Shown one piece after another: positions 49,878 to 62,730 of a stretch of 64,000 nucleotides of DNA. Within the stretch, counting starts at the first letter, position 1, and each line of letters begins with the position of its first letter. Origin of the DNA: Gemmatimonadota bacterium. Lineage in GTDB: Bacteria; Gemmatimonadota; Gemmatimonadetes; Longimicrobiales; Gaopeijiaceae. The stretch is taken from NCBI GenBank assembly GCA_013002885.1, contig JABDLS010000047.1, positions 17,351-81,350 of the forward strand, written 5' to 3'. The notes beneath the pieces are model-generated. The model saw only the letters and a list, made by a program, of their open reading frames with translations. It was not told where the DNA came from and searched no databases. The position numbers were made by a program, and so were the translations under genes.

Positions 49878-50594
49878 ATGACCTCCGCGACCATCAGCTA
49901 CACGGAACGCCTGACCGAGACGGTGCCGGCGGTAAGGGAGAGCATCAACGATGCCGCCCACGCCGCGGGTCGCAACGTCGAGGAGGTTCGGCTCGTGGCC
50001 GTCACGAAGGGCCACCCGTTCGAAGCCGTGGATGCGGCCCTGGCTGCGGGACTCACCGATCTCGGCGAGAACCGAGTGGCCGAGATGGAGGAGAAGGTCG
50101 CCCACTACGGTTCGGAATCCGTGGTCTGGCACATGATCGGCCATATCCAGAGCCGAAAGGCCGGACGGGTGGCGGAGGCGGCGGCCATGGTCCACTCCGT
50201 CGACTCGTTGAAGCTCGCACGGAAGCTGTCCCGGGCCGCGGAGGAAGGCAGCGCGCCCCTGAACGTCCTGGTGCAGATGAACACATCGGGGGAAGAAGCG
50301 AAGTACGGCTTCGCTCCCGAGGAGGGATACGACGCTGTATTGGAGATGAGCGAGATGACTGGGCTGAACGTTCGAGGGCTGATGACCATGGCTCCCTTCG
50401 ACGACGACGAGGGGGTCCTGGGCTCGACCTTTTCCGGTCTGAGAAAGCTCTCCGAGCGACTCCAGTCGGCGAGCGAACAAGTGGGTCCCGAGCTTTCCAT
50501 GGGCATGACCAACGACCTGGACATCGCCATTCGCGAAGGCAGCACCATAGTCCGCATCGGCACGGCACTCTTCGGCGAACGAGATCGAAAATGA
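49878..50594 (+). CDS. yggS: YggS-family pyridoxal-phosphate homeostasis protein
   Basis: VRLVAVTKGHP (PLP Lys), WHMIGHIQSRK, LSMGMTNDL. ATG 49878 chosen because the track start 49851 lies inside the terminator T-tract. Confidence 0.88.
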   Translation: MTSATISYTERLTETVPAVRESINDAAHAAGRNVEEVRLVAVTKGHPFEAVDAALAAGLTDLGENRVAEMEEKVAHYGSESVVWHMIGHIQSRKAGRVAEAAAMVHSVDSLKLARKLSRAAEEGSAPLNVLVQMNTSGEEAKYGFAPEEGYDAVLEMSEMTGLNVRGLMTMAPFDDDEGVLGSTFSGLRKLSERLQSASEQVGPELSMGMTNDLDIAIREGSTIVRIGTALFGERDRK

Positions 50595-51859
50595 TCGACC
50601 TGACACCGCTGGACGTCCGCAACAAGCGCGGCGACTTCAAGAAGCTGATGCGGGGGTACGACCCGCAGGAAGTGGACGTCTTCCTGGAGTTGGTTGCCGA
50701 GCGCCTGGAGGCCCTGGTACGCGAGAACATCCAGCTCCGGGATCGGACCACCGCTCTGCAAGTGCAGGTGGAGGCTCAGACCGGTCGTGAGCAGGCGGTC
50801 CAGGACGCACTGGTCACCGCCCAGGAGCTGCGGAAAGACATTCGCGAGCAGTCGCAGCGAGAGGCCGATCACATCATGCGGGAAGCCGAAGGTGAGGCTC
50901 GGCGCATGATCACCGAGGCCGAAGCGGAGGTGCGCTCGCGTCTTCGCGGCGTCCAACACCGGTTGGACGAGTCTCGGGACTCCCTGGAGAAGCTGGAGCG
51001 GCGGCGTCAGCGCTTCCTCCATGAGTTCCGCGGACTCCTCCAGCGAGAACTGGACGTGGTCCAGGTGGAAGAAGAGCGGGTCCCGCTGGAAGAGCGGACG
51101 GTGGATCTGGAACTGGGTGGTCATCGAGGGTCGTCGGCGATGGGGTCGCCAGGAGCCGGCTTGGTCGGAGAGGGCTCCCCCGTGGTAGATGAGGCGTTCC
51201 CCGCGGTCGATGAGGTGACCTCCGAGGTCGAAGACCCGGGCGCTGAGGCCGACGACGCATCTCCCGGAGTCGAGGAGACCTCGGACGAAGCCGATCAAGC
51301 CTCCCACGGAGTCGAGGGGTCCCCCGATGAGGCGTCCCTGGTCGAGGATGGCTCCGGTACAGTCGAGCTCGTGGACTTCAGTGGCGATGAATACGACCGG
51401 GCCTCGGCACCCGAGAGTGCCGACTCGAGCGAGGAGGCGGACGAGGTTACACCAGAGCCCCCCACCGAGCCGGCATCCAACGGCTCGGAAAGTGGGGACG
51501 GGAAGGAGGAGGCACGACCCGAGGAGTCTCCCCCTGTCGATGTCGCCGACCTGGGACCCAAAGCCATGCACGCGGCCGATGGAGCCGCGGCGCCACCTAC
51601 TCCGACCGTGGCGAGCGAGCCGTCGGCTCTCGAACTCGAGCTCATGGCCAGCGCCACACCCGAGGCCCTCTCGGGGGACTACCCCGACGTGCCCGACCTC
51701 GAGACCGTGCTCGCCGAAGCGGGGATCGACGAGGTGAGGCCGCCGGCGGACGAGGAGATCTCTCCGCCTCCAGCGAGCCGAAACCCGTCGCGCGACGATG
51801 CTCGTCGGCCCGAGGATCGGCTTGTGTTCGACAAGGACAAGAAGGGCAGGCAGGGCTGA
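50591..51859 (+). CDS. divIVA: DivIVA-domain protein with long acidic low-complexity C-terminal region
   Basis: N-terminus LTPLDVRNKRGDFKKLMRGYDPQEVDVFLELVAERLE plus coiled coil. The remaining ~250 aa are rich in D, E, P, S and A. ATGA overlap with yggS. Confidence 0.85.
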   Translation: MIDLTPLDVRNKRGDFKKLMRGYDPQEVDVFLELVAERLEALVRENIQLRDRTTALQVQVEAQTGREQAVQDALVTAQELRKDIREQSQREADHIMREAEGEARRMITEAEAEVRSRLRGVQHRLDESRDSLEKLERRRQRFLHEFRGLLQRELDVVQVEEERVPLEERTVDLELGGHRGSSAMGSPGAGLVGEGSPVVDEAFPAVDEVTSEVEDPGAEADDASPGVEETSDEADQASHGVEGSPDEASLVEDGSGTVELVDFSGDEYDRASAPESADSSEEADEVTPEPPTEPASNGSESGDGKEEARPEESPPVDVADLGPKAMHAADGAAAPPTPTVASEPSALELELMASATPEALSGDYPDVPDLETVLAEAGIDEVRPPADEEISPPPASRNPSRDDARRPEDRLVFDKDKKGRQG

Positions 51860-51870
51860 CGGCCAGGAAC

Positions 51871-52695
51871 ATGAGTCAAGATCTGAGGCACCGGGTCGAC
51901 GAGTGCGCCGAGGCTATCAAGGGGCGCCCCGGCGCCCGTCCCACCGTCGGGATCGTCCTGGGCACCGGGCTAGGTGCGCTGGCGGACATGATCGACGTCG
52001 AGACTACGATCCCCTATGAGGAGTTGCCGGGCTTTCCGGTCCCGACCGTGGAGAGTCACTCGGGACGCCTAGTACTGGGCACGCTCGGCGGCACGCCGGT
52101 GGTGGCCATGCAGGGGCGCTTTCATCGGTACGAAGGCTACACCCTCCAGGAAGTCACCTTCCCTGTTCGAGTTCTGAAACGAGTGGGTGCCGAGACCCTT
52201 GTCGTTTCCAACGTGTCCGGCGGCATGAATCCGCTCTGGAGCGTCGGCGAGCTCGTCCTGATCGACGACCACATCAACCTGCTGGGCGACAGTCCGCTCA
52301 TCGGGCCCAACGACGAAGATTTCGGGCCGCGATTCCCCGATATGTCGGAGCCATATGACATCGGGCTTCAGGAGATGGCCCTGGAAGCCGCATTGGAGTT
52401 GAATATCCGGCTGAACCGAGGCGTATACGTGGCCGTGTCCGGACCCCAGCTCGAGACCCGCGCCGAGTACCGGATGCTCCGGGGTCTCGGCGCCGACGTG
52501 GTAGGAATGTCCACGGTTCCAGAGGTGATCGTCGCCCGGCACATGAGTATGCGAGTGCTGGGCCTCAGCATCATTACCGACGCGTGTCTGCCCGATGCGC
52601 TCGAGCCCGTCGACGTTTCCGCTATCATCGCCGCCGCCGCCGAGGCAGAACCCCAACTGACCCGACTCATCGAGCGGGTCGTGAGCCGAATCTAG
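51871..52695 (+). CDS. purine-nucleoside phosphorylase (PNP/MTAP trimeric family)
   Basis: VESHSGRLVLG, GRFHRYEGY, VSGPQLETRAE, GMSTVPEV. Confidence 0.9.
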   Translation: MSQDLRHRVDECAEAIKGRPGARPTVGIVLGTGLGALADMIDVETTIPYEELPGFPVPTVESHSGRLVLGTLGGTPVVAMQGRFHRYEGYTLQEVTFPVRVLKRVGAETLVVSNVSGGMNPLWSVGELVLIDDHINLLGDSPLIGPNDEDFGPRFPDMSEPYDIGLQEMALEAALELNIRLNRGVYVAVSGPQLETRAEYRMLRGLGADVVGMSTVPEVIVARHMSMRVLGLSIITDACLPDALEPVDVSAIIAAAAEAEPQLTRLIERVVSRI

Positions 52696-52720
52696 AACCG
52701 CTTTCCAGCGACTCATCCCC

Positions 52721-55700
52721 ATGACATACCCCGAGCTGCCGAGCAGCCTCCTCGACGTGGAGGAGGAGTCCCTTCGTCGTTGGCGCGACGAAGACCTCTT
52801 CCGCCAGACACTGGAGCAGAACGCCGACCAGGAGCGCTTCGTCTTCTACGAAGGTCCGCCCACCGCGAACGGCCGGCCGGGCCTACATCACATTCTCAGC
52901 CGTACCATCAAAGACCTCGTCTGCCGTCACCGGGCCATGCTCGGCCACAGCGTCACCCGGATCGCGGGGTGGGATACGCATGGGCTACCGGTTGAGATCG
53001 AGGCCGAGAAGAAGCTGGGCATCAGCGGTAAGCCTGAAATCGAAGCCCTGGGCATCGCCGAGTTCAATCAAGCGTGCAAGGACTCGGTCTTCACGTACAA
53101 GGAGGAGTGGGAGGAACTCAGCGAGCGTATCGGCTACTGGCTCGAGTACTGGCGCCCCTACGTCACCTTCCACACCACCTACATCGAGTCGGTGTGGGCC
53201 ATCCTCAAGACCATCGCGGACAAGGACCTCCTCTACCGCGGGCACAAGAGCGTGCCGTATTGCCCGCGGTGCGGGACCGCACTTTCGTCCCACGAGGTGG
53301 CTCAGGGCTACCGCGACGTCTGGGATCCGTCGTTGACCTTCGTGTGCGAGGTCGTCGATGCCGATGGCGAGCCCGACCCGGAGGGCAGGGCGATCCTGGC
53401 CTGGACGACGACGCCATGGACCGTGCCGTCGAACACGGGCCTGGCCGTCCACCCCGACCTCTCGTATGTGGAGGTGGCTCGCGACGGTCGCCGCTACATC
53501 GTCGCCGAGGGGCGCGCCGAGGCCATCTTCGGCGAAGAGGCCGACGTCGTGGGGCACCTTCGAGGCAGCGAGATGGTGGGCTGGCGGTACCGTCGCCCTC
53601 TGGACCTGGTCCCCGAGCCTGAGGATTCCGGCAACGGCTGGACCGTCGTAGCCGAGGACTTCGTGAGCGCCGACGACGGGACGGGTATCGTCCACATGGC
53701 GCCGGCGTTCGGGGCCGACGACTACGCCGCCGGTCAGCGTCACGGACTGCCCATGCTCAACCCCATCGACGACGCCGGTCGCTTCGAGGAGGGCATCGAG
53801 CTGGTGGGTGGGCTGTTCGTAAAGGACGCCGACGCGGTCCTCGTCGACGAGTTGAAGGCGAGGACGCTGCTCTTCGAGCTCGATCGCGTCGAGCACAGCT
53901 ACCCTCATTGCTGGCGCTGCGACTCGCCTCTCCTGTACGTAGCCATCGATTCGTGGTTCGCGGCGACGTCGACACTGAAGGACCAGCTTCTGGCGAACAA
54001 TGCCCAGATCGCCTGGCACCCACCGGAGGTGGGAGAGAAGCGTTTCGGTGAGTGGCTGCGAGGCAACATCGACTGGGCCCTCTCCCGGGACCGCTACTGG
54101 GGCACGCCCCTTCCGGTCTGGGTGTGCGATGCCGACCGCGACCATATGCGGTGGATCGGCTCCCTGGCCGAACTGGCCGAGCACGCCGGAGCGCTTCCGG
54201 AGGACTTCGATCCCCATCGGCCCTTCATCGACGAAGTTACCTGGGGTTGCTCGGAATGCGCTGGGACCATGAAGCGGACTCCGGAGGTCATCGACGTCTG
54301 GTTCGATTCTGGAGCCATGCCCTACGCCCAGTGGCATTATCCCTTCGAGAACGAAGAGGAGTTCGAGGACCACTTCCCAGCGGACTTCATCTGCGAGGGC
54401 CTGGACCAGACCCGAGGATGGTTCTACTCACTCCTGGCCATCTCGACCATGCTCGGGCGCGGACCGTCCTTCAAGGCCTGCCTCGTGAACGACCTGGTTC
54501 TCGACTCCGAGGGCCAGAAGATGTCCAAGTCCAAGGGCAACATCGTGAACCCTTGGGACGCGGTGGGGGAGCACGGAGCCGACGCCGTGCGCTGGTACTT
54601 CATCACCTCGTCGAACCCGTGGCTGCCCAAGCGCTACGATCCGGAAGGCGTCTCCGAGGCGGCCCGCAAGTTCTTCGACACCCTCTTCAACTCCTATCGC
54701 TTCTTCACCCTCTACGCCTCGGTGGAGGGGTGGGTCCCGTCGGATGACGACCCGGCGGTGACGGAGCGACCGCTCCTGGATCGGTGGCTCGTGGCCCGCC
54801 TCGATTCGGTGGTAGGTGAGGTGTGCTCGGGGCTCGACGGCTACGATCTCACCCGCGCGTACCGCGCTCTAGGCGACTTCGTCGTCGAGGACCTCTCCAA
54901 CTGGTACGTACGTCGCAATCGTGCCCGCTTCTGGAACAGCGACGACGATGCCGACCAGCGAGCAGCTTTCCGGACGCTCTACGACGCCTTGCGCCAGGTA
55001 GCGCTTCTGGCGGCACCGTGCACACCCTTCTCCTCTGACTGGCTCCATCGTGCGCTCACCGGTGAGAGCGTCCACCTCCAGCGCTTTCCCTCTGCACTCG
55101 GAGCGTCCGAGCGAGACGCCCTCCTCGCGGGCGAGGACCTCGAGGGCGACATGGATGCGGTTCGAACCCTCGTTTCGCTGGGCCGTGCGGCTCGGGAAGA
55201 CGTGCAGATCCGCGTGCGGCAGCCTCTCAGACAGGTACGAGCCGTCGTCCCCGGGGGGCGGACGCTCTCCGAGGAGATGCTGGAGGTCGTTCGGGACGAG
55301 TTGAACGTGAAGGAGGTGGGCTTCCTCTCCACGTCCGAGGGGCTGGTGAGCCTTACGGCCAAGCCGAACTACCGCTCCCTCGGGAGCCGCTTCGGCAAGC
55401 GGACCAACGACGTGGCCAACCGGATCAGGGCGCTCTCCGAGGAGGACCTCCGAGCCTACCAGGCCACGGGGATGCTGTCTGTCGAGCTGAACGGAGAATC
55501 CCACGATCTGGGCGCAGACGACCTGGACGTGATTCAGGAGGCGTCCGGCGGGTTGGCGGTGAAGGGGGAGGGCGCCTACACCGTGGCCCTCGACCCCTCG
55601 CTCGACGACGAGCTGAGGGCGGAAGGTGTCGCCCGTGAACTCGTGAATCGTATCCAGCGCCTGCGTCGAGATGCCGGCCTCGAGATCTCGGACCGGATCG

Positions 55701-55891
55701 AACTCCGGGTGGCCGGATCGAAGGAGATCCGTACCGCGGCGGAGAGCCATCGGGACTTCATCGGTGGAGAGGTGCTGGCGGCGCAGATGAATGTGGTCGA
55801 GGCCATTGAGGACGGCGACCTGCCCCACGTCCGGGAGGTCGATATCGACGGAACGCCGGCGACCCTCGGTCTGCGGCCTTCGGTTGGCTAG
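52721..55891 (+). CDS. ileS: isoleucine--tRNA ligase
   Basis: 1056 aa. HIGH-region PTANGRPGLHH, editing-domain WTTTPWT, KMSKS motif. C-terminal region typical of the long (type 2-like) IleRS. Confidence 0.97.
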   Translation: MTYPELPSSLLDVEEESLRRWRDEDLFRQTLEQNADQERFVFYEGPPTANGRPGLHHILSRTIKDLVCRHRAMLGHSVTRIAGWDTHGLPVEIEAEKKLGISGKPEIEALGIAEFNQACKDSVFTYKEEWEELSERIGYWLEYWRPYVTFHTTYIESVWAILKTIADKDLLYRGHKSVPYCPRCGTALSSHEVAQGYRDVWDPSLTFVCEVVDADGEPDPEGRAILAWTTTPWTVPSNTGLAVHPDLSYVEVARDGRRYIVAEGRAEAIFGEEADVVGHLRGSEMVGWRYRRPLDLVPEPEDSGNGWTVVAEDFVSADDGTGIVHMAPAFGADDYAAGQRHGLPMLNPIDDAGRFEEGIELVGGLFVKDADAVLVDELKARTLLFELDRVEHSYPHCWRCDSPLLYVAIDSWFAATSTLKDQLLANNAQIAWHPPEVGEKRFGEWLRGNIDWALSRDRYWGTPLPVWVCDADRDHMRWIGSLAELAEHAGALPEDFDPHRPFIDEVTWGCSECAGTMKRTPEVIDVWFDSGAMPYAQWHYPFENEEEFEDHFPADFICEGLDQTRGWFYSLLAISTMLGRGPSFKACLVNDLVLDSEGQKMSKSKGNIVNPWDAVGEHGADAVRWYFITSSNPWLPKRYDPEGVSEAARKFFDTLFNSYRFFTLYASVEGWVPSDDDPAVTERPLLDRWLVARLDSVVGEVCSGLDGYDLTRAYRALGDFVVEDLSNWYVRRNRARFWNSDDDADQRAAFRTLYDALRQVALLAAPCTPFSSDWLHRALTGESVHLQRFPSALGASERDALLAGEDLEGDMDAVRTLVSLGRAAREDVQIRVRQPLRQVRAVVPGGRTLSEEMLEVVRDELNVKEVGFLSTSEGLVSLTAKPNYRSLGSRFGKRTNDVANRIRALSEEDLRAYQATGMLSVELNGESHDLGADDLDVIQEASGGLAVKGEGAYTVALDPSLDDELRAEGVARELVNRIQRLRRDAGLEISDRIELRVAGSKEIRTAAESHRDFIGGEVLAAQMNVVEAIEDGDLPHVREVDIDGTPATLGLRPSVG

Positions 55892-56846
55892 CGGGCCGGG
55901 GACGGTCCACGAACTCGTCGTGGGCCCGGAGGGGGCCGATCGGCTGGACGTTTTCGTTTCCGACCGGCTGGAGCTGTCCCGGACTCGTGTCCAGAAGCTC
56001 GTGGTGGCGGGCCTGGTGACCGTCGACGGCCGCGGCGCGAAGAAGTCCGAGGAGTTGGCGCCGGGGTGCGCCGTACGGGTGCAGGTGCCACCAGCACAGT
56101 CCGTCGAGATCGCCGCCGAAGACCTCCCGCTGGACATCGTCTTCGAGGACGACCACCTGTTGGTGGTGAACAAAGCCGCGGGGATGGTCGTGCATCCTGC
56201 CCCCGGCCACCGATCGGGAACGATGGTGAACGCACTCCTATGGCATGTCCCGAACCTGTCCGGCGTTGGGGGGCGGGCTCGCCCGGGCATCGTGCACAGG
56301 CTCGATCGCGACACGTCGGGCCTCCTCGTCGTTGCCAAGACCGACGCTGCCCACCGTCGGCTCGCCGACGCACTCCGGGCTCGTCGCATCAAGCGCCTCT
56401 ACCAGGCCGCGTGTTGGGGGCACGTAGCCGAGGATGCCTTGGCCATCGACGCGCCCATCGGCCGCGACCCCAACGACCGGAAGCGGATGGCTGTGGTGGA
56501 AGACGGACGCCCGGCTCACACACGGGTGAAGGTGCGGGAGCGCTGGCTGCGAGCCGACCTCCTGGACGTTGCCCTCAAGACCGGACGGACGCATCAGATC
56601 AGGGTCCATCTCGCGCATATCGGCCATCCCGTGGTCGGCGACCAGACCTACGGCGTCGGTTGGGAGCGTGGTCTGGGCGGCCCCACCCGTCGGTGGGTGG
56701 ACGAGCTGGCTCGCCGGGTCAGGCGGCAGTTCCTCCACGCCTCGAAGCTCGCCTTCGAGCATCCGGAGTCAGGTGACCGCATGGAGTTCGAAGCGTCCCT
56801 GCCCGCCGATCTCGGCGGCGTCGCCGAGTGGGCCCGCCAAGGCTGA
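55884..56846 (+). CDS. rluD: RluA-family 23S rRNA pseudouridine synthase (RluD-like)
   Basis: S4 domain (RLDVFVSDRLELSRTRVQKLV). Catalytic HRLDRDTSGLLV. GRTHQIRVH. Start uncertain: TTG 55884 (overlaps the ileS stop) or GTG 55920. Confidence 0.88.
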   Translation: MASGPGTVHELVVGPEGADRLDVFVSDRLELSRTRVQKLVVAGLVTVDGRGAKKSEELAPGCAVRVQVPPAQSVEIAAEDLPLDIVFEDDHLLVVNKAAGMVVHPAPGHRSGTMVNALLWHVPNLSGVGGRARPGIVHRLDRDTSGLLVVAKTDAAHRRLADALRARRIKRLYQAACWGHVAEDALAIDAPIGRDPNDRKRMAVVEDGRPAHTRVKVRERWLRADLLDVALKTGRTHQIRVHLAHIGHPVVGDQTYGVGWERGLGGPTRRWVDELARRVRRQFLHASKLAFEHPESGDRMEFEASLPADLGGVAEWARQG

Positions 56847-56952: not shown

Positions 56953-58776
56953 ATGTCCGAACTCGATCCGAAACTCACCTTCGAGTCTTTCGTCGTCGGC
57001 CCCGCCAACCGCCTGGCGTCGGCCGCGGCTCGGCGTGCCGCCGAGACACCCGGGACGAGCTACAACCCCCTCTTCCTCTACTCCAAGCCGGGCCTGGGCA
57101 AGACGCACATCCTCACCGCCATCGCCCATAGAGCAGAGTCGGACCGTGTCGAGTACATGGCGCTCGAAGAGTACCTCGACCGTCTGGAGGCGGGCTTGCA
57201 CTCCGGAACCGGCGAGAAGGGTGTGTACGGGGATCTGGACATCCTTCTTCTCGACGACGTCCAGTTCTTGACCGGCCAGCCCGAGGCCCAGGAGATGCTA
57301 CTCAAGACGCTGGACCAACTGACGTCGTCCGAAGGGCAGATCGTGTTGGCCAGCGACCGACCGCCGGCGGACATCAACGGACTCGATGCTCGCCTGCTGT
57401 CGCGCTTCTCAGGGGGGCTCATCGTCGATCTGGGCGCCCCGGAGTACGAGACACGCGTCGCCATCATCAACAAGAAGGCCGAAGAGCGGGGCCAGACCCT
57501 GGAGCCAGGGGTCGCGGAGGCCGTTGCGAAGGCGCCCCTCAAGAATGTCCGCGAGCTCGGTGGCGTCCTCAACAAGATATTCGCTACGCAGGACCTGGAA
57601 GACCGGCGCGTCGCCATCGAAGAAGTGGCCGCGCTTCTCGAGAAACAGGACGAGGCGGCTGCCCTCAGTAGCGGCTCCGACGAATTCGGCTCGTTCCTCA
57701 CCGAACTCACGTCGACGGTCGAGACCGTGGTCGAGGAGAAGGAGGAGCTGTGGAGAAAGACGCTTCGAGACGCCATCGAGACGGCGGACCGGCGGGGCTT
57801 TTCGACGCTCCGCCTCGAATCGCTCCTCGACAGTTCCGTTGAACCGGAGGGGTGGGAAGAGGCCATCCGAGGCTTCAAGGCCGACCTCCAGCGCCTCCAC
57901 GAGATCGACAATGAGCTGAACCGTCTCGGCAATCCCTGGCCCGAAGCCGCCCAGGGGGTACTCGAGGACCCCGACCGCCTCGAAGAGGCCGAGGCGCTCC
58001 TCACCTCCGTCCGCGAGCGTCAGCGGCCCTTTCCCCGGATCGCGGACGGCGACCAGTTGCACGATCTCGACGACTTCGAAAACATCGCGCTGAAGGCGGC
58101 TGCCCAGTTGGTCGGTGCGGAGAAGCCCGACTACAACCCCTTGTACGTCTGGTCGTCCGACGAAGCGACGGCCAAGACGCTCCTCGGCGCCGTCGGCCGA
58201 ACGTACCAGGAAGCATACCCCGAGCTAGCCATGGCCGTGGCCTCCGTACCCGAGTTCGCCTCGGACTTCATTCGAGCCCTTGGCGAGGGTGTCGCTGGGG
58301 CGTGGCGGGAGCGGTGGTGGACGGTGGACCTCCTCCTTGTCCATGGTATCCAGGATCTGGTTGAGACCGAGCGGGCGCAGGACGAGTTCTTCCACCTTTT
58401 CGAGGCTCTTCGTCGACGTGGAGCGAGGATGATGTTCGTGGGCGATCGGGCTCCGGCGTCCATATCGGAAATCGACGATCGTATGCGTTCCCGATTCGAG
58501 GGTGGTCTCGTCCTGGAGGCATCGACGGGTACCATCGTGCCTCTTGAGCTCGTCGAGTCGTCCGACGACGAGCATGCCGGCTCCGACGACGCCATCTTCG
58601 TGCCGGATCTCGATGACGGCGCGGACGACGGCGAGGCTGGTGGCACGTCGTCGAGGCCTCAACCAGTGCCCATCGAGGCCGCGACGCAGAGGGGTGGCGC
58701 GTGGTTCCCCGGACCAGAGAACGCGGTGATCCACTGGCCGCGCTTCGAGGAGCTCCTCATCGAGGAGCTAGACTGA
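56953..58776 (+). CDS. tandem DnaA-domain-III (AAA+) protein lacking DnaA domain IV; module 1 intact, module 2 degenerate
   Basis: Module 1: FESFVVGPANRLA..YNPLFLYSKPGLGKTH (Walker A), ILLLDDVQF (Walker B), LASDRPP, RLLSRF (box VII Arg), NVRELGGVLNK (sensor II). Module 2 starts near 58132: YNPLYVWSSDEATAKT, LLLVHGIQ, ERAQDEFFHLFEAL, FVGDRAP, RMRSRFEGGL. No HTH domain IV. ATG 56953 follows a 106-nt gap. Confidence 0.85.
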   Translation: MSELDPKLTFESFVVGPANRLASAAARRAAETPGTSYNPLFLYSKPGLGKTHILTAIAHRAESDRVEYMALEEYLDRLEAGLHSGTGEKGVYGDLDILLLDDVQFLTGQPEAQEMLLKTLDQLTSSEGQIVLASDRPPADINGLDARLLSRFSGGLIVDLGAPEYETRVAIINKKAEERGQTLEPGVAEAVAKAPLKNVRELGGVLNKIFATQDLEDRRVAIEEVAALLEKQDEAAALSSGSDEFGSFLTELTSTVETVVEEKEELWRKTLRDAIETADRRGFSTLRLESLLDSSVEPEGWEEAIRGFKADLQRLHEIDNELNRLGNPWPEAAQGVLEDPDRLEEAEALLTSVRERQRPFPRIADGDQLHDLDDFENIALKAAAQLVGAEKPDYNPLYVWSSDEATAKTLLGAVGRTYQEAYPELAMAVASVPEFASDFIRALGEGVAGAWRERWWTVDLLLVHGIQDLVETERAQDEFFHLFEALRRRGARMMFVGDRAPASISEIDDRMRSRFEGGLVLEASTGTIVPLELVESSDDEHAGSDDAIFVPDLDDGADDGEAGGTSSRPQPVPIEAATQRGGAWFPGPENAVIHWPRFEELLIEELD

Positions 58777-60395
58777 TGGCCATCGAAGGCGCACTCCAGG
58801 ACGTCAGTCTGGCCGACATCTGCCAACTCCTCGGCATGGGCGGGAAGACCGGATGTCTCAGCATCACCGACCGGTCGAACTTCGGCTACATCTACTTCGA
58901 GAAGGGCCGGGTCATCTATGCTTCGGTCCTGAATCGTAAGGACCGCCTCGGCGAACTCCTGGTCCGCAACCACGCCATCACGCGAAAGGATCTGTCGACC
59001 GCTGTCGAGAGACAATCCGAGACCAAGGGCAAGAAGCTGGGTGAGCTCCTCGTGGAGATCGATGCCCTCTCCGAAGAGGTCCTGCAGCGATACATCCAGG
59101 TGCAGATCGAGGAAGCCGTCTACCACCTTTTCGCTTGGAATCAGGGCTCCTTCCATTTCGACACGGGCCAGATGCCCGATGAGGACGGCATCTATCTGGT
59201 CAGCATTCCGCCGGAGGCCCTCCTCATGGAAGGGGCTCGCCGCGTCGACGAGTGGAGCCAGGTCGAGAAGAAGATCCCGTCGTTCGACATCGTCTTTCAG
59301 CTCGACAAGCACCCGGACGAGTCCGACGACGACGTCGATCTAACCAAGGCGCAGAACAAGGTCCTCCCGTTCATCGACGGTGTCCGAACCGTGCATGAAA
59401 TCATGGACGAGGCCGGCCTCGTCGAGTTCGAGACGGGGAAGGCACTGTACGGTCTCATCCAGGCGGGCTACGTGTCCCGGTCGGGAGAGAGAAGCACCAC
59501 CGAGGAGACCGGGGGCGATGAGGCTCTACAGCAGCACTTGAACGTCGGTATAGCGTTCTATCGGTCGGGTATGCTCGAAGACGCGGCCCGCGAGTTCGAG
59601 CAGGCTTTAGCCCTCGAGCCCGAGCAGGCGCGAGCCAACTTCATGATGGGCCTCATCGCCGTCAGGCGGGGCCAACTCGAAGATGCCCTCGGCCACTTCG
59701 GCTCCATGCCTCCTGGAGCGAGCAATGCCTATTCCGTTCATCGCAACACGGCACTGACGCTGGAGCTTCTCGGCCGATACGACGACGCACTCGCTGCCCT
59801 CGACGAAGCCCTGGTCACCAAGCCCACGGATGCCGCTGTGCATCTTTCTCGGGCGATCATCCATATCAAGCGCGGCGACATTCCTCTGGCCCTGGACGCA
59901 CTTCGGCTGTACCGCACGTCACCGTCGGTGAAGAAGCCATCGCCCCAGTACTACGCATATACCGTTCTGGCTGCGGGTGTGAGCAGCGATCTGGATTACG
60001 CGGTAGCCGTCGGCCGCGAAGGGCTCGGGCACTATCCAGACTCGGGTCCGATCCTGGTGAATACCGGCCAGGTCCTGGAGCGCCGGGGCGAAGTGGAAGC
60101 GGCGGCAGCGCTCTACAAGCGGGCCACCCAGGCGAACCCGCCGCTTCCGCAGGCCCATAAGAACCTCGGGGACCACGCCTACGCACACGGCGACCAGGAA
60201 GGCGCACGGGCTCAGTACGAAAAGGCGGTGAAACTCGCGCCGAGGCTCGGCGACGACGTCTACCTCCGACTCGGCACACTCGCCTACCAGGGCAACGACC
60301 GCGACGTCGCCGTCCTTCTGTGGCGCCGGGCATTGGACCTCAATCCCAACAACCAGGCCGTCCAGGCGAACCTGGAGATGCTCCAGGGCGAGTGA
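58776..60395 (+). CDS. DUF4388 (PATAN-like) domain protein with T2SSE_N/MshEN-like repeats and C-terminal TPR repeats
   Basis: GALQDVSLADICQLLGMGGKTGCLSI...GYIYFEKGRVIYA (DUF4388 signature). Two RLGELLV/KLGELLV 24-aa repeats. TPR-like helices from about residue 290 to the end. TGATG overlap with the upstream stop. Confidence 0.8.
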   Translation: MAIEGALQDVSLADICQLLGMGGKTGCLSITDRSNFGYIYFEKGRVIYASVLNRKDRLGELLVRNHAITRKDLSTAVERQSETKGKKLGELLVEIDALSEEVLQRYIQVQIEEAVYHLFAWNQGSFHFDTGQMPDEDGIYLVSIPPEALLMEGARRVDEWSQVEKKIPSFDIVFQLDKHPDESDDDVDLTKAQNKVLPFIDGVRTVHEIMDEAGLVEFETGKALYGLIQAGYVSRSGERSTTEETGGDEALQQHLNVGIAFYRSGMLEDAAREFEQALALEPEQARANFMMGLIAVRRGQLEDALGHFGSMPPGASNAYSVHRNTALTLELLGRYDDALAALDEALVTKPTDAAVHLSRAIIHIKRGDIPLALDALRLYRTSPSVKKPSPQYYAYTVLAAGVSSDLDYAVAVGREGLGHYPDSGPILVNTGQVLERRGEVEAAAALYKRATQANPPLPQAHKNLGDHAYAHGDQEGARAQYEKAVKLAPRLGDDVYLRLGTLAYQGNDRDVAVLLWRRALDLNPNNQAVQANLEMLQGE

Positions 60396-61407
60396 GGGTG
60401 ACCGCGCCCCGACGCGCCTCGCTGACCTTTGCGCCCATCCTTACTGCCTGCGTCCTTGTGGTGCCCATGGTCTTCGGGCCCCCGGACGCTGCCGGGCAGG
60501 AGCGCCCGCTCCCCGACACCCTCGACGGGGAGCCGTACGGGTCGGTTCGGAGCCAGCGTGCAATCATCTACCACGCCCCCCGGGATTCGCTGGTGGCCAT
60601 CCGTGTCGGTGAGCTCCTCGACGAACAGGCATCGTTGCCTGGCCTGCCCGAGTCGGTCCCCGACGGAGTCCACGCGGTCCTTGCCCACACGCCCGCTGCC
60701 TTCGACGAGGCCATCGGTGGTGCCGTTCCCGAGTGGCGGGCCGGAGTGGCCATTCCGTCCCGCGACATGCTGGTCATGCCCACGGGAGAAGGCGTCCGCG
60801 TGGTCGACGGTGAGGGCCTCAGGACGCTGCGTCACGAGTGGGCCCACCTCGGCTTGCACCAGACGCTGGGTGACCTCAGGATCCCACGTTGGTTCAACGA
60901 GGGATACGCCCAATGGGCCTCTGGGGGCTTCGACGTCATGGGAGCCTGGCGCCTGCGGGTCCTCATCGCCCTGGGTCGAGCCCCTGAAATGGACTCCCTC
61001 ACTCTGGGTTGGCCTGCGGATCGGGAGCAGGCCCGCACCGCGTATCTCTTGTCGGCCAGCGCCGTGACCTACCTCCTCGAAGCGGGGGGTGAACGAGGTC
61101 TGGAGCTTTTCCTCGAACGTTGGCGCGACACGCGCTCCTTCGAGGGTGCCTTCCGGGAGACGTTCGGCCTTACCACGGGTCAGTTCGAGTCCGACTGGAA
61201 GCGTCACGTCCGTCAGCGCTACGGTTGGCTGTTCGTACTGAGTCATTCGTCGCTCTTCTGGCTGCTGCTGGCACTCGTCTTGCTCTTCATGGTCCGCGGT
61301 CGACAAGGACGGAACAGGGAGAAACTGGCGCGCCTTCGTGCTGATGATCTCCCGGATTCACCGGCCTATTGGGACACGAGTCAAGATTCAGGGGTACGAG
61401 GCCCACC

Positions 61408-61411
<4 letters not shown>
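60392..61411 (+). CDS. peptidase-MA (gluzincin)-like protein with signal/anchor N-terminus and C-terminal TM segment
   Basis: HEWAH-x17-E, giving HExxH-X18-E with WFNEGYAQW (60833-60901). N-terminal hydrophobic LTFAPILTACVLVVPMVF. C-terminal TM LFWLLLALVLLFMV. GTGA overlap with the upstream stop. Confidence 0.75.

Positions 61412-62730
<1,319 letters not shown>

Follow-up and report, generated by a model that had tools for sequence, protein, structure and literature searches.

What might a bacterium do with a protein in which the ATPase core of the replication initiator DnaA occurs twice and no match to the DNA-binding domain of DnaA is found? This question is raised by a gene, here designated X, located at 56953..58776 on the plus strand of a 64-kb stretch of DNA (the window) from a Gemmatimonadota bacterium of the order Longimicrobiales (contig JABDLS010000047.1). 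The first and second modules of X that resemble domain III of DnaA (DnaA-III) are referred to as M1 and M2. With moderate confidence, X is considered to be a non-replicative DnaA-type AAA+ paralogue, which acts as an ATP switch or scaffold together with a PATAN-TPR protein in chemosensory (Che) and MglA/MglB polarity signalling. An initial annotation, made from the DNA sequence without database searches, had described X as one intact and one degenerate module, and had suggested an intramolecular pseudo-dimer. Its observations held. Its interpretation stood in part: the pseudo-ATPase fold was borne out, and the segment that it had taken for a linker is in fact a conserved autonomous domain.

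Two DnaA-type modules and one predicted ATP site

X encodes 607 amino acids (aa) from the ATG at 56953 to the TGA at 58774-58776. This start was preferred because the public gene calls agree with it and because the homologues are approximately 600 aa long. A longer open reading frame (ORF) beginning with TTG at 56569 overlaps the upstream rluD-like gene and was rejected. Many antisense ORFs over X (e.g., 57078-58004 on the minus strand) were discarded as high-GC artefacts, and public homologues match the plus-strand product. A public protein from a Gemmatimonadetes metagenome-assembled genome (MAG), 'ATP-binding protein [Gemmatimonadetes bacterium]', is 100% identical to X.

The Pfam family Bac_DnaA (PF00308) matched the translation of X twice, at residues 4-159 and at residues ~379-521, with a whole-protein score above the gathering score (E=1.3e-72, 243.7 bits). 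When the second copy was scanned alone, it gave E=1.4e-26 and 94 bits against a cutoff of 23. M1 and M2 were also aligned with each other by BLASTP (E=2e-13, 27% identity over 147 aa). The following features were assigned to M1.

56962..57429, plus strand: alpha/beta core of M1 (DnaA IIIa), residues 4-159, matching Pfam profile positions 1-162 of 162
57091-57108, plus strand: Walker A GLGKTH, residues 47-52 (K50), from a motif scan of the translation
57244-57267, plus strand: Walker B LLLDDVQF (D101/D102), from the motif scan
57343-57366, plus strand: sensor I region
57385-57420, plus strand: box VII DARLLSRFSGGL, which contains RLLSRF (R147, R151), from the motif scan
57430..57657, plus strand: lid of M1 (DnaA IIIb), residues 160-235, from the alignment with DnaA structures through residues 223-230 and from AlphaFold helices at 165-240
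57544-57564, plus strand: sensor II NVRELGG (R200), from the motif scan

All DnaA-III motifs that the initial annotation had quoted for M1 are present; only its position for Walker A (57082-57105) was off by a few bases. Among 118 close homologues, the set to which the conservation values for M2 given below also refer, the catalytic motifs of M1 (Walker A, the DD of Walker B, box VII, and sensor II) reach 96-100% conservation. In a sequence search of the PDB, M1 matched DnaA of Bacillus subtilis (8bv3, 8e-45). In a Foldseek search, the model of X was superimposed on DnaA-III of the same species (8btg/8bv3) with a root-mean-square deviation (rmsd) of 1.8 Å over ~235 columns and 38-39% identity. 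Judged from these motifs, the one complete ATP site of X is that of M1.

The features of M2 were as follows.

58081..58518, plus strand: M2, a degenerate DnaA IIIa core without a lid, residues 377-522, from Pfam, a profile search against the PDB, AlphaFold, and a motif census
58132, plus strand: start of YNPLYVW, from the motif scan
58153-58179, plus strand: former P-loop SSDEATAKT
58288-58323, plus strand: invariant GVAGAWRERWWT
58330-58353, plus strand: former Walker B LLLVHGIQ
58369-58410, plus strand: ERAQDEFFHLFEAL
58441-58455, plus strand: GDRAP
58474-58509, plus strand: box VII DDRMRSRFEGGL (R510, R514)

The second copy had been placed near 58132, which is exactly where YNPLYVW starts, and the GDRAP motif and the box VII context ascribed to it were found. 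The reported loss of the P-loop and of the Walker B acidic residues was likewise confirmed. Box VII is the only catalytic motif kept in M2; Walker A is replaced by a variable SDExxA(K/R)T and Walker B by LLL(V/I)HGIQ. When only degenerate second modules were used to build a profile, it matched DnaA domain III alone in the PDB (1.7e-32), except for a marginal match to 2kjq, a chain named 'DnaA-related protein' (E=0.0045). In the AlphaFold model, M2 showed a predicted local distance difference test score (pLDDT) of 95-98, and its strands and helices follow one another as in M1, with no lid after box VII. Pfam, the degenerate-module profile, AlphaFold, and Foldseek thus confirm the second DnaA-III fold. 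Few stretches of M2 are less conserved than the former P-loop (mean conservation 0.69), and GVAGAWRERWWT, ERAQDEFFHLFEAL, and the box VII residues R510 and R514 are essentially invariant. This relaxation of the P-loop beside an invariant box VII and invariant flanking motifs indicates a maintained pseudo-ATPase and no decaying remnant. M2 is thus predicted to be a pseudo-ATPase whose fold and box VII arginines are under strong constraint.

The remainder of X consists of three segments.

57673..58065, plus strand: family-specific helical 'linker' domain, residues 241-371 (EFGSFL..., GF.T.RLE, NPWPEAA, DPDRLEEAEALL), conserved family-wide
58522..58692, plus strand: acidic spacer, residues 524-580, poorly conserved (column conservation ~0.45-0.65) and predicted to be disordered (pLDDT <50 at residues 543-582), net charge -12
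58693..58773, plus strand: conserved C-terminal peptide GGAWFPGPENAVIHWPRFEELLIEELD, from family alignments

The helical domain is marked in the family by the motifs EFxxFL, G(F/Y)xTxRLE, and DPxRxxEAE. It was modelled with a pLDDT of ~95 within the full protein, and with a pLDDT of 89.4 and a predicted TM-score (pTM) of 0.71 when modelled alone. No Pfam family matched it, and no PDB fold was matched by Foldseek (best E=1.9). Its confident solo fold, the lack of a known match, and the occurrence of tandem copies in relatives indicate an autonomous, undescribed domain that is more than a linker. Such tandem copies are seen in two proteins of 1248 aa each, P0215 (L086:8001-11747) with 8 copies and P0261 with at least 5. 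In both, the copies precede one intact DnaA-III module, and P0261 has zinc ribbons at its end. Neighbouring genes at the locus of the tandem-linker protein include a UQ_con (E2-like) and a phage-sheath-like gene.

The C-terminal peptide has the consensus (S/R)EK(V/M)VWxWPxxxxR(L/I)(I/V)EE. It is situated at the extreme C terminus in Longimicrobiales, Gemmatimonadales, and low-GC relatives, and in the fusion protein P0144 it is kept just before the fused PATAN domain. X is strongly acidic, with a net charge of -57 and an isoelectric point (pI) of 4.46; the net charge is -23 to -35 in its relatives and about -1 in canonical DnaA. The acidic linker and acidic C-terminal stretch noticed in the initial annotation correspond to residues 222-265 (net -11) and to the spacer, and the pI of the C-terminal 85 residues is 4.05. 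AlphaFold modelling of X from a 51-sequence alignment gave a mean pLDDT of 86.9 and a pTM of 0.51. As read from the sequence, the layout of X is M1 (core and lid), a novel ~130-aa helical domain, the M2 core, a disordered acidic spacer, and a C-terminal WxWP...EE peptide.

More than 100 clusters with 70-92% identity to X, named 'DnaA/Hda family protein', are labelled Gemmatimonadota or Longimicrobiales, and homologues reach down to ~30% identity across the phylum. A search with the C-terminal half of X returned 80 representatives at E<1e-30, mostly 550-900 aa long and with the same layout, and a hidden Markov model of the linker matched 237 of the fetched proteins. X has each element by which the family is defined, namely M1, the helical linker, M2, the WxWP...EE peptide, and a PATAN-TPR gene directly after it. 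Judged from these searches, the family is found mainly in Gemmatimonadota and is near phylum-wide. The state of M2 differs among its members.

Gemmatimonadales orthologues (n=60): Walker A GxGKTH, Walker B DDV(H/Q), lid present
Longimicrobiales intermediate P0141: Walker A GPEGAGKST, Walker B LVLDGLE, lid lost
Longimicrobiales intermediate P0138: Walker A GPDDGPRGT, Walker B LFIDGVQ, lid lost
Window clade (n=40): Walker A variable SDExxA(K/R)T, Walker B LLL(V/I)HGIQ, lid lost

Because both ATP sites are intact in the Gemmatimonadales orthologues and the intermediates P0141 and P0138 exist, the dead M2 is a derived, lineage-specific state of Longimicrobiales. The ancestral X is predicted to have bound ATP with both modules, as still seems possible in Gemmatimonadales, and in Longimicrobiales M2 the lid was probably lost first, followed by the P-loop and the Walker B acids.

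The probable PATAN-TPR partner and the signalling gene neighbourhood

Directly downstream of X lies the gene of a protein with a PATAN domain and TPRs.

58776..60395, plus strand: PATAN (DUF4388/PatA_N) and TPR protein, 539 aa (Pfam DUF4388 2.1e-38, and TPR families)
58944..59105, plus strand: MshEN-type tandem motif for the binding of cyclic di-GMP (c-di-GMP) in the PATAN helical insertion of this protein, residues 57-110 (NCBIfam NF053729, 45.3 bits; cutoff, 38)

The ATG of the PATAN-TPR gene and the stop codon of X share one base (TGATG). In 71 Gemmatimonadales loci, a PATAN-TPR orthologue follows X directly, at a spacing of -1 nt (57 loci), 0 (7), +1 (6), or 49 nt (1); in a distant low-GC relative, a PATAN gene directly precedes X. 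Furthermore, X is joined to PATAN-TPR in a single protein, P0144 (1026 aa). In a second fusion, P0135 (738 aa), a receiver domain replaces the usual C-terminal tail. The gene order and the gene fusion suggest that X is co-translated with PATAN-TPR and binds it.

The two 24-residue motifs of the partner fit the published MshEN pattern (PMC5013675) apart from its Gly, in whose place one motif has H and the other D. Since both glycines are replaced, the binding of c-di-GMP by the window partner is uncertain. The Gly is kept in the Gemmatimonadales PATAN-TPR orthologues, and the ligand site of the partner may be degenerating in parallel with M2 of X. MshEN proteins are c-di-GMP receptors, the domain forming the N terminus of PilB/MshE ATPases; the partner of X has an MshEN-type motif, whereas X itself has none. 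Three adjacent genes that encode MshEN and Bac_DnaA fusions of 983, 398, and 1990 aa were observed at L088:2359-13973 (contig JAUXFG010000024.1, GCA_030620115.1), between pilD and pilB-pilT-pilC-pilS. The 1990-aa protein has two DnaA-III modules with ~1300 aa of coiled coil between them, and the locus appears to represent a non-replicative use of DnaA-type ATPases in a type IV pilus cluster.

Gene order was compared at 80 loci from a genome scan seeded on the linker of distant members; nearly all are Gemmatimonadales MAGs, and the comparison covers only the clade with both sites intact. In Gemmatimonadales, about ten che, TPR, PATAN, mglB, and mglA genes lie between rluD and X (synteny loci L089, L074, L026, L068, and L072). 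The order of the cluster is rluD-cheW-cheY-cheA-cheC/X-TPR(893 aa)-PATAN/TPR-TPR-Roadblock-Roadblock-like-mglA-X-PATAN/TPR-cheR-cheD-cheB-cheW-cheW-TPR-peptidase_MA, where cheC/X denotes a CheC/CheX-type gene and the separate X denotes gene X. An MglA-like gene is located just upstream of X in 77 of the 80 loci. Its product contains the family hallmark TVPGQ, and the threonine hallmark of MglA has been described (PMC3000849). One Roadblock-like protein matched Thermus-type MglB weakly, below the cutoff. Within the chemosensory clusters at L089:1-21986 and L090:1-17972, which contain cheA, cheW, cheY, cheC/X, cheR, cheD, and cheB, no gene for a methyl-accepting chemoreceptor was called.

The same full che/mgl cluster was found in a Longimicrobiales MAG with a partly degenerate M2. 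In a low-GC relative with a close homologue that carries the label Candidatus Cloacimonetes, the order is cheW-cheY-cheA-AAA-cheW-cheC/X-TPR-PATAN-X; this che/TPR/PATAN cluster shows that the association of X, PATAN-TPR, and Che reaches beyond Gemmatimonadales. The full Gemmatimonadales-type cluster was also seen in a MAG labelled 'uncultured Acidimicrobiia bacterium' (L023, contig CAXMUQ010000073.1), which is probably a binning or labelling error and possibly a transfer. A divergent X was seen after two bactofilin genes and the gene of an 867-aa TPR-like protein in a low-GC MAG labelled Gemmatimonadetes (L003:3765-12701, contig RFFQ01000173.1). Downstream of this X lie genes of several proteins without a Pfam match, and PATAN, MglA, and Che genes were not found at this locus.

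The window and its closer relative P0124 share a reduced order, exbD-tonB-yggS-divIVA-PNP-ileS-rluD-X-PATAN/TPR-peptidase_MA-(REC)-ntrC, in which REC denotes a receiver domain. The genes that flank the X-PATAN pair of the window are the following.

55791..56846, plus strand: rluD-like pseudouridine synthase, upstream (Pfam PseudoU_synth_2 and S4), a synteny anchor in common with Gemmatimonadales
60398..61411, plus strand: Peptidase_MA_2 gene with HExxH, downstream (Pfam 7.9e-13), which lies downstream in 54-55 related loci

Because the same anchors, rluD and the peptidase gene, flank X here, both signalling blocks are absent and the X-PATAN pair is what is left in the window lineage. This gene order suggests that only X, PATAN-TPR, and the peptidase gene were retained in the lineage when the neighbouring Che and Mgl genes were lost.

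Further genes of the window were noted. A sigma-54-dependent response regulator (REC, Sigma54_activat, and AAA lid) is encoded at 61408-62730, just after the peptidase gene; the same is seen in the relative L091, and the gene is maybe a conserved neighbour of the reduced locus. The stretch 50591-56846 contains divIVA, a PNP/UDP-type phosphorylase gene, ileS, and rluD, which follow exbD-tonB-yggS in the same order in L091. This upstream order is similar to the distal part of the division-cell-wall region of other phyla, and rsmH (mraW) of Gemmatimonadales is found ~9 kb downstream of X. Models of defence systems (PADLOC) gave only marginal matches for X and its neighbours (mad8, 17.4 bits; generic TPR, 18 bits). 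An Rfam scan over 50-64 kb and a promoter/terminator scan yielded nothing informative.

The adjacency of PATAN to MglA/MglB has already been published (PMC4316618), and this survey of MglA neighbourhoods mentions PATAN and does not mention DnaA. An interaction of PATAN-type response regulators with the motor of type IV pili has been reported in a preprint (bioRxiv 10.1101/2021.06.11.447907). The Gemmatimonadales cluster resembles both the Frz and MglA/MglB systems of Myxococcus xanthus and the cyanobacterial PATAN pilus regulators in that it joins che genes, MglA with TVPGQ, Roadblock/MglB proteins, large TPR proteins, and PATAN; however, no DnaA-type AAA+ component was found described in the literature on those systems. 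A role of X in a pathway of Che, MglA/MglB, and PATAN is thus suggested by gene order, one fusion, and domain co-occurrence.

Comparison with DnaA, Hda, and IstB

DnaA-type AAA+ domains are known in replication initiation (DnaA and Hda), helicase loading (DnaC and DnaI), and transposition (IstB). Public records name members of the X family 'DnaA/Hda family protein' or even 'chromosomal replication initiator'. X scored 330.9 bits with the DnaA equivalog model TIGR00362 (cutoff, 343.9), and the alignment covered only profile positions 102-337 of 437. DnaA domain IV (Bac_DnaA_C, PF08299) was not matched at E<=1 by the whole of X, nor at E<=10 by its C-terminal part. No match to DnaA domain I/II (DnaA_N, PF11638) was found at E<=1, and the AAA+ core begins at residue 4. 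Hda models also stayed below their cutoffs (TIGR03420, 105.6 vs 194.8; PRK08084, 48 vs 268). The beta-clamp-binding motif of Hda is N-terminal and of the QL[SP]L type; a motif of this type is not visible at either end of X (N terminus, MSELDPKLTFESF; C terminus, ...WPRFEELLIEELD). The Pfam and NCBIfam searches and the sequence thus agree with the earlier view that DnaA domains I/II and IV and an Hda-type clamp-binding N terminus are absent.

Among the observations that the initial annotation had named as speaking against its reading was that X is the only dnaA homologue and sits at oriC; the X locus is not oriC-like. Near-matches to the DnaA box TTATCCACA are not enriched (2 vs 2.68 expected), no GC-skew switch occurs near X, and X has ileS, rluD, PATAN-TPR, and the peptidase gene as neighbours in place of a dnaN/recF/gyrB setting. 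The same non-oriC neighbourhood of X was found in more than 80 genomes. It is very unlikely that X is a replication initiator, and direct DNA binding by X is unlikely.

X resembles DnaA domain III (PF00308; 8bv3/8btg, 2hcb, 3r8f, and 2z4r) in the fold of both modules and in the full motif set and lid of M1. In contrast, the parts of DnaA that interact with DnaB and DiaA (domain I/II) and bind DnaA boxes (domain IV) are absent. Unlike DnaA, X has two modules per chain with a novel domain between them, M2 lacks a nucleotide site and a lid, the protein is strongly acidic, and its genomic setting is one of signalling and not of oriC. Hda (HdaA), the protein of the regulatory inactivation of DnaA (RIDA), is likewise a DnaA paralogue consisting of AAA+ only, and was the second-best family in the sequence and fold searches. 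The arginine finger of Hda acts on the ATP of another protein. However, Hda has one module of ~230 aa and an N-terminal beta-clamp motif, whereas X has two modules, no such motif, and no replication genes as neighbours.

Such a relationship raises an alternative in which X would restrain DnaA in the manner of Hda or cap its filaments; it would dock on DnaA-ATP at oriC, stimulate its hydrolysis, and block oligomer growth. As a pseudo-dimer, X would expose an arginine-finger face that is live and an ATP face that is dead, and it might then put initiation under chemosensory, polarity, or c-di-GMP control. The order of its relatives in sequence and structure (DnaA domain III, then Hda), the invariance of the box VII arginines in both modules, and the lack of domain IV, as in Hda, agree with this role. 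So does the arginine of M2 in 'TERAQDEFF', which from a manual alignment we tentatively take to be the counterpart of R245 of Escherichia coli DnaA, a residue that contacts single-stranded DNA. The missing QL[SP]L-type motif and the score with the Hda model, far below its cutoff, do not fit. In addition, X was never found beside dnaN, dnaA, or other replication genes at more than 80 loci, and was always accompanied by PATAN, TPR, MglA/MglB, or Che genes; its fusion partners are PATAN-TPR and REC and include no replication proteins. The conserved partners PATAN-TPR, MglA/MglB, and Che argue against a replication role of the DnaA or Hda type, and we regard this alternative as unlikely.

As a candidate, the helper ATPase IstB of IS21 was rejected. 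The Pfam family IstB_IS21 was matched only at positions 95-195 of 238 (26.2 bits; cutoff, 24.1), the NCBIfam IS21 helper model gave 36.4 against a cutoff of 200, and no transposase gene is adjacent. That X is such a helper, or a decaying or mis-called duplicate of dnaA with no specific role, is hardly credible. The weak IstB_IS21 match and the missing catalytic motifs of M2 would be accounted for; however, what it matches is the AAA+ core in general, and the match to DnaA is far stronger. Furthermore, the full-length ORF is kept across the clusters and the phylum at the identities given above, the synteny is fixed, and non-catalytic parts (the linker, the W-rich motif, box VII, and the C-terminal peptide) are strongly constrained.

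The pairing of an active module with a dead homologous module that keeps a structural or arginine-finger role is a principle common to X, the type II AAA+ proteins (NSF D2 and p97/Cdc48), and ORC with its inactive subunits. When the whole X model was superimposed on p97 and NSF chains by Foldseek, ~575 columns were aligned with a poor fit (rmsd 16-19 Å). NSF and p97 are closed hexameric rings of the classic clade, whereas X belongs to the initiator clade (open spirals), and its modules are a 130-aa domain apart and not stacked.

Arginine finger, possible mode of action, and significance

In the reading that we prefer, the complex of X and PATAN-TPR would form the core of a module that joins the chemosensory proteins (CheA/W/Y/R/B/C/D) with the small GTPase system MglA/MglB for polarity or motility, and c-di-GMP would be a possible input. 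By analogy with the structural biology of DnaA, an arginine finger that reaches across an interface of the DnaA type would sense ATP at M1 (K50, D101/D102, and R200). The most economical candidate for this finger is R514 of M2, either within one chain or between chains, and it is plausible that an M2 arginine completes the ATP site of M1. The binding and hydrolysis of ATP would toggle the assembly state of X, and the acidic tail and the C-terminal peptide may serve as a docking element that controls what PATAN-TPR recruits.

Alternatively, X may polymerize with itself in an ATP-dependent manner into a DnaA-like helix (...M1-M2-M1-M2...) and act as a scaffold at the cell pole or as part of the cytoskeleton. 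The interface at the dead M2 would then be nucleotide-independent in the window lineage, and the ATP of M1 alone would gate polymerization, giving an open filament and not a closed intramolecular switch. The DnaA filament structures 2hcb, 3r8f, and 8btg were the top structural matches, and AAA+ modules of the initiator clade (DnaA and ORC) assemble as open spirals. Both arginine fingers are conserved despite the single ATP site, DnaA-III modules of relatives occur together with very long coiled coils or with the linker domain in eight copies, and the neighbouring genes encode DivIVA in the window and bactofilins at L003. However, conservation of these DivIVA and bactofilin neighbours does not extend across the family, and X, with its strongly acidic surface (net -57), may be less prone to self-assemble unless a partner is present. 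We consider this possibility somewhat unlikely.

Several points weigh against the preferred assignment of X to an ATP switch or scaffold in Che and MglA/MglB signalling. The first concerns the pathway: all evidence for the functional assignment consists of gene order, one fusion, and domain co-occurrence, and tblastn searches for mglA, mglB, che, and pil found no che, mgl, or pil gene within the 64-kb window. Since these genes are absent, the pathway context is borrowed from relatives, and X is maybe re-purposed in the window lineage. The second concerns the finger. The arginine finger of M1 itself (R151) is equally invariant (39 of 40), and two fingers for one ATP site mean that an intermolecular filament fits as well as an internal pseudo-dimer. 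Conservation alone cannot name the finger that serves the single ATP site, and box VII residues are also structural. The pTM of 0.51 gives no confident prediction of the relative placement of the modules; with R151 as conserved as R514, a pseudo-dimer and an open M1-M2-M1-M2 filament are not separated by the data. Finally, no canonical dnaA of the same genome was located by look-ups of the names of DnaA-like clusters, those of DnaA-length representatives being named only Actinobacteria or left unnamed, and a role of X directed at nucleic acid or DnaA may remain, given the presumed R245 counterpart in M2.

The AAA+ initiator-clade fold and pseudo-ATPase modules are already known themes. No description of the X family was found in the literature on DnaA paralogues, PATAN/DUF4388, MglA/MglB, dnaA/oriC of Gemmatimonas, and type IV pili. 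The tandem DnaA-III architecture, the private helical domain and C-terminal peptide, the near phylum-wide conservation, and the embedding among Che, MglA/MglB, and PATAN genes thus appear to be undescribed. A broader idea, which we regard as doubtful, is that polarity and motility signalling (Che, MglA/MglB, PATAN, c-di-GMP, and type IV pili) has taken over DnaA-type AAA+ modules from outside its field, so that they serve beyond replication as assembly elements gated by ATP. X would then form either a polar filament scaffold or a hetero-oligomer with DnaA, and the latter would place initiation in these budding bacteria under the control of chemosensory proteins, a small GTPase, or c-di-GMP. 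If this is true, X of Longimicrobiales would be a natural minimal version with one live site and one arginine-finger donor.

For the biology of Gemmatimonadota, the preferred reading would call for the correction of many metagenome entries in which these proteins are annotated as replication initiators. The modules of PATAN and MglA/MglB outside Myxococcus, which are poorly understood, would gain a new testable component. The family would also offer a natural series, from both sites live through the loss of Walker B to the loss of the P-loop and lid, for studying how a pseudo-ATPase originates with its arginine finger kept, and genetics should be feasible in cultured Gemmatimonas species.

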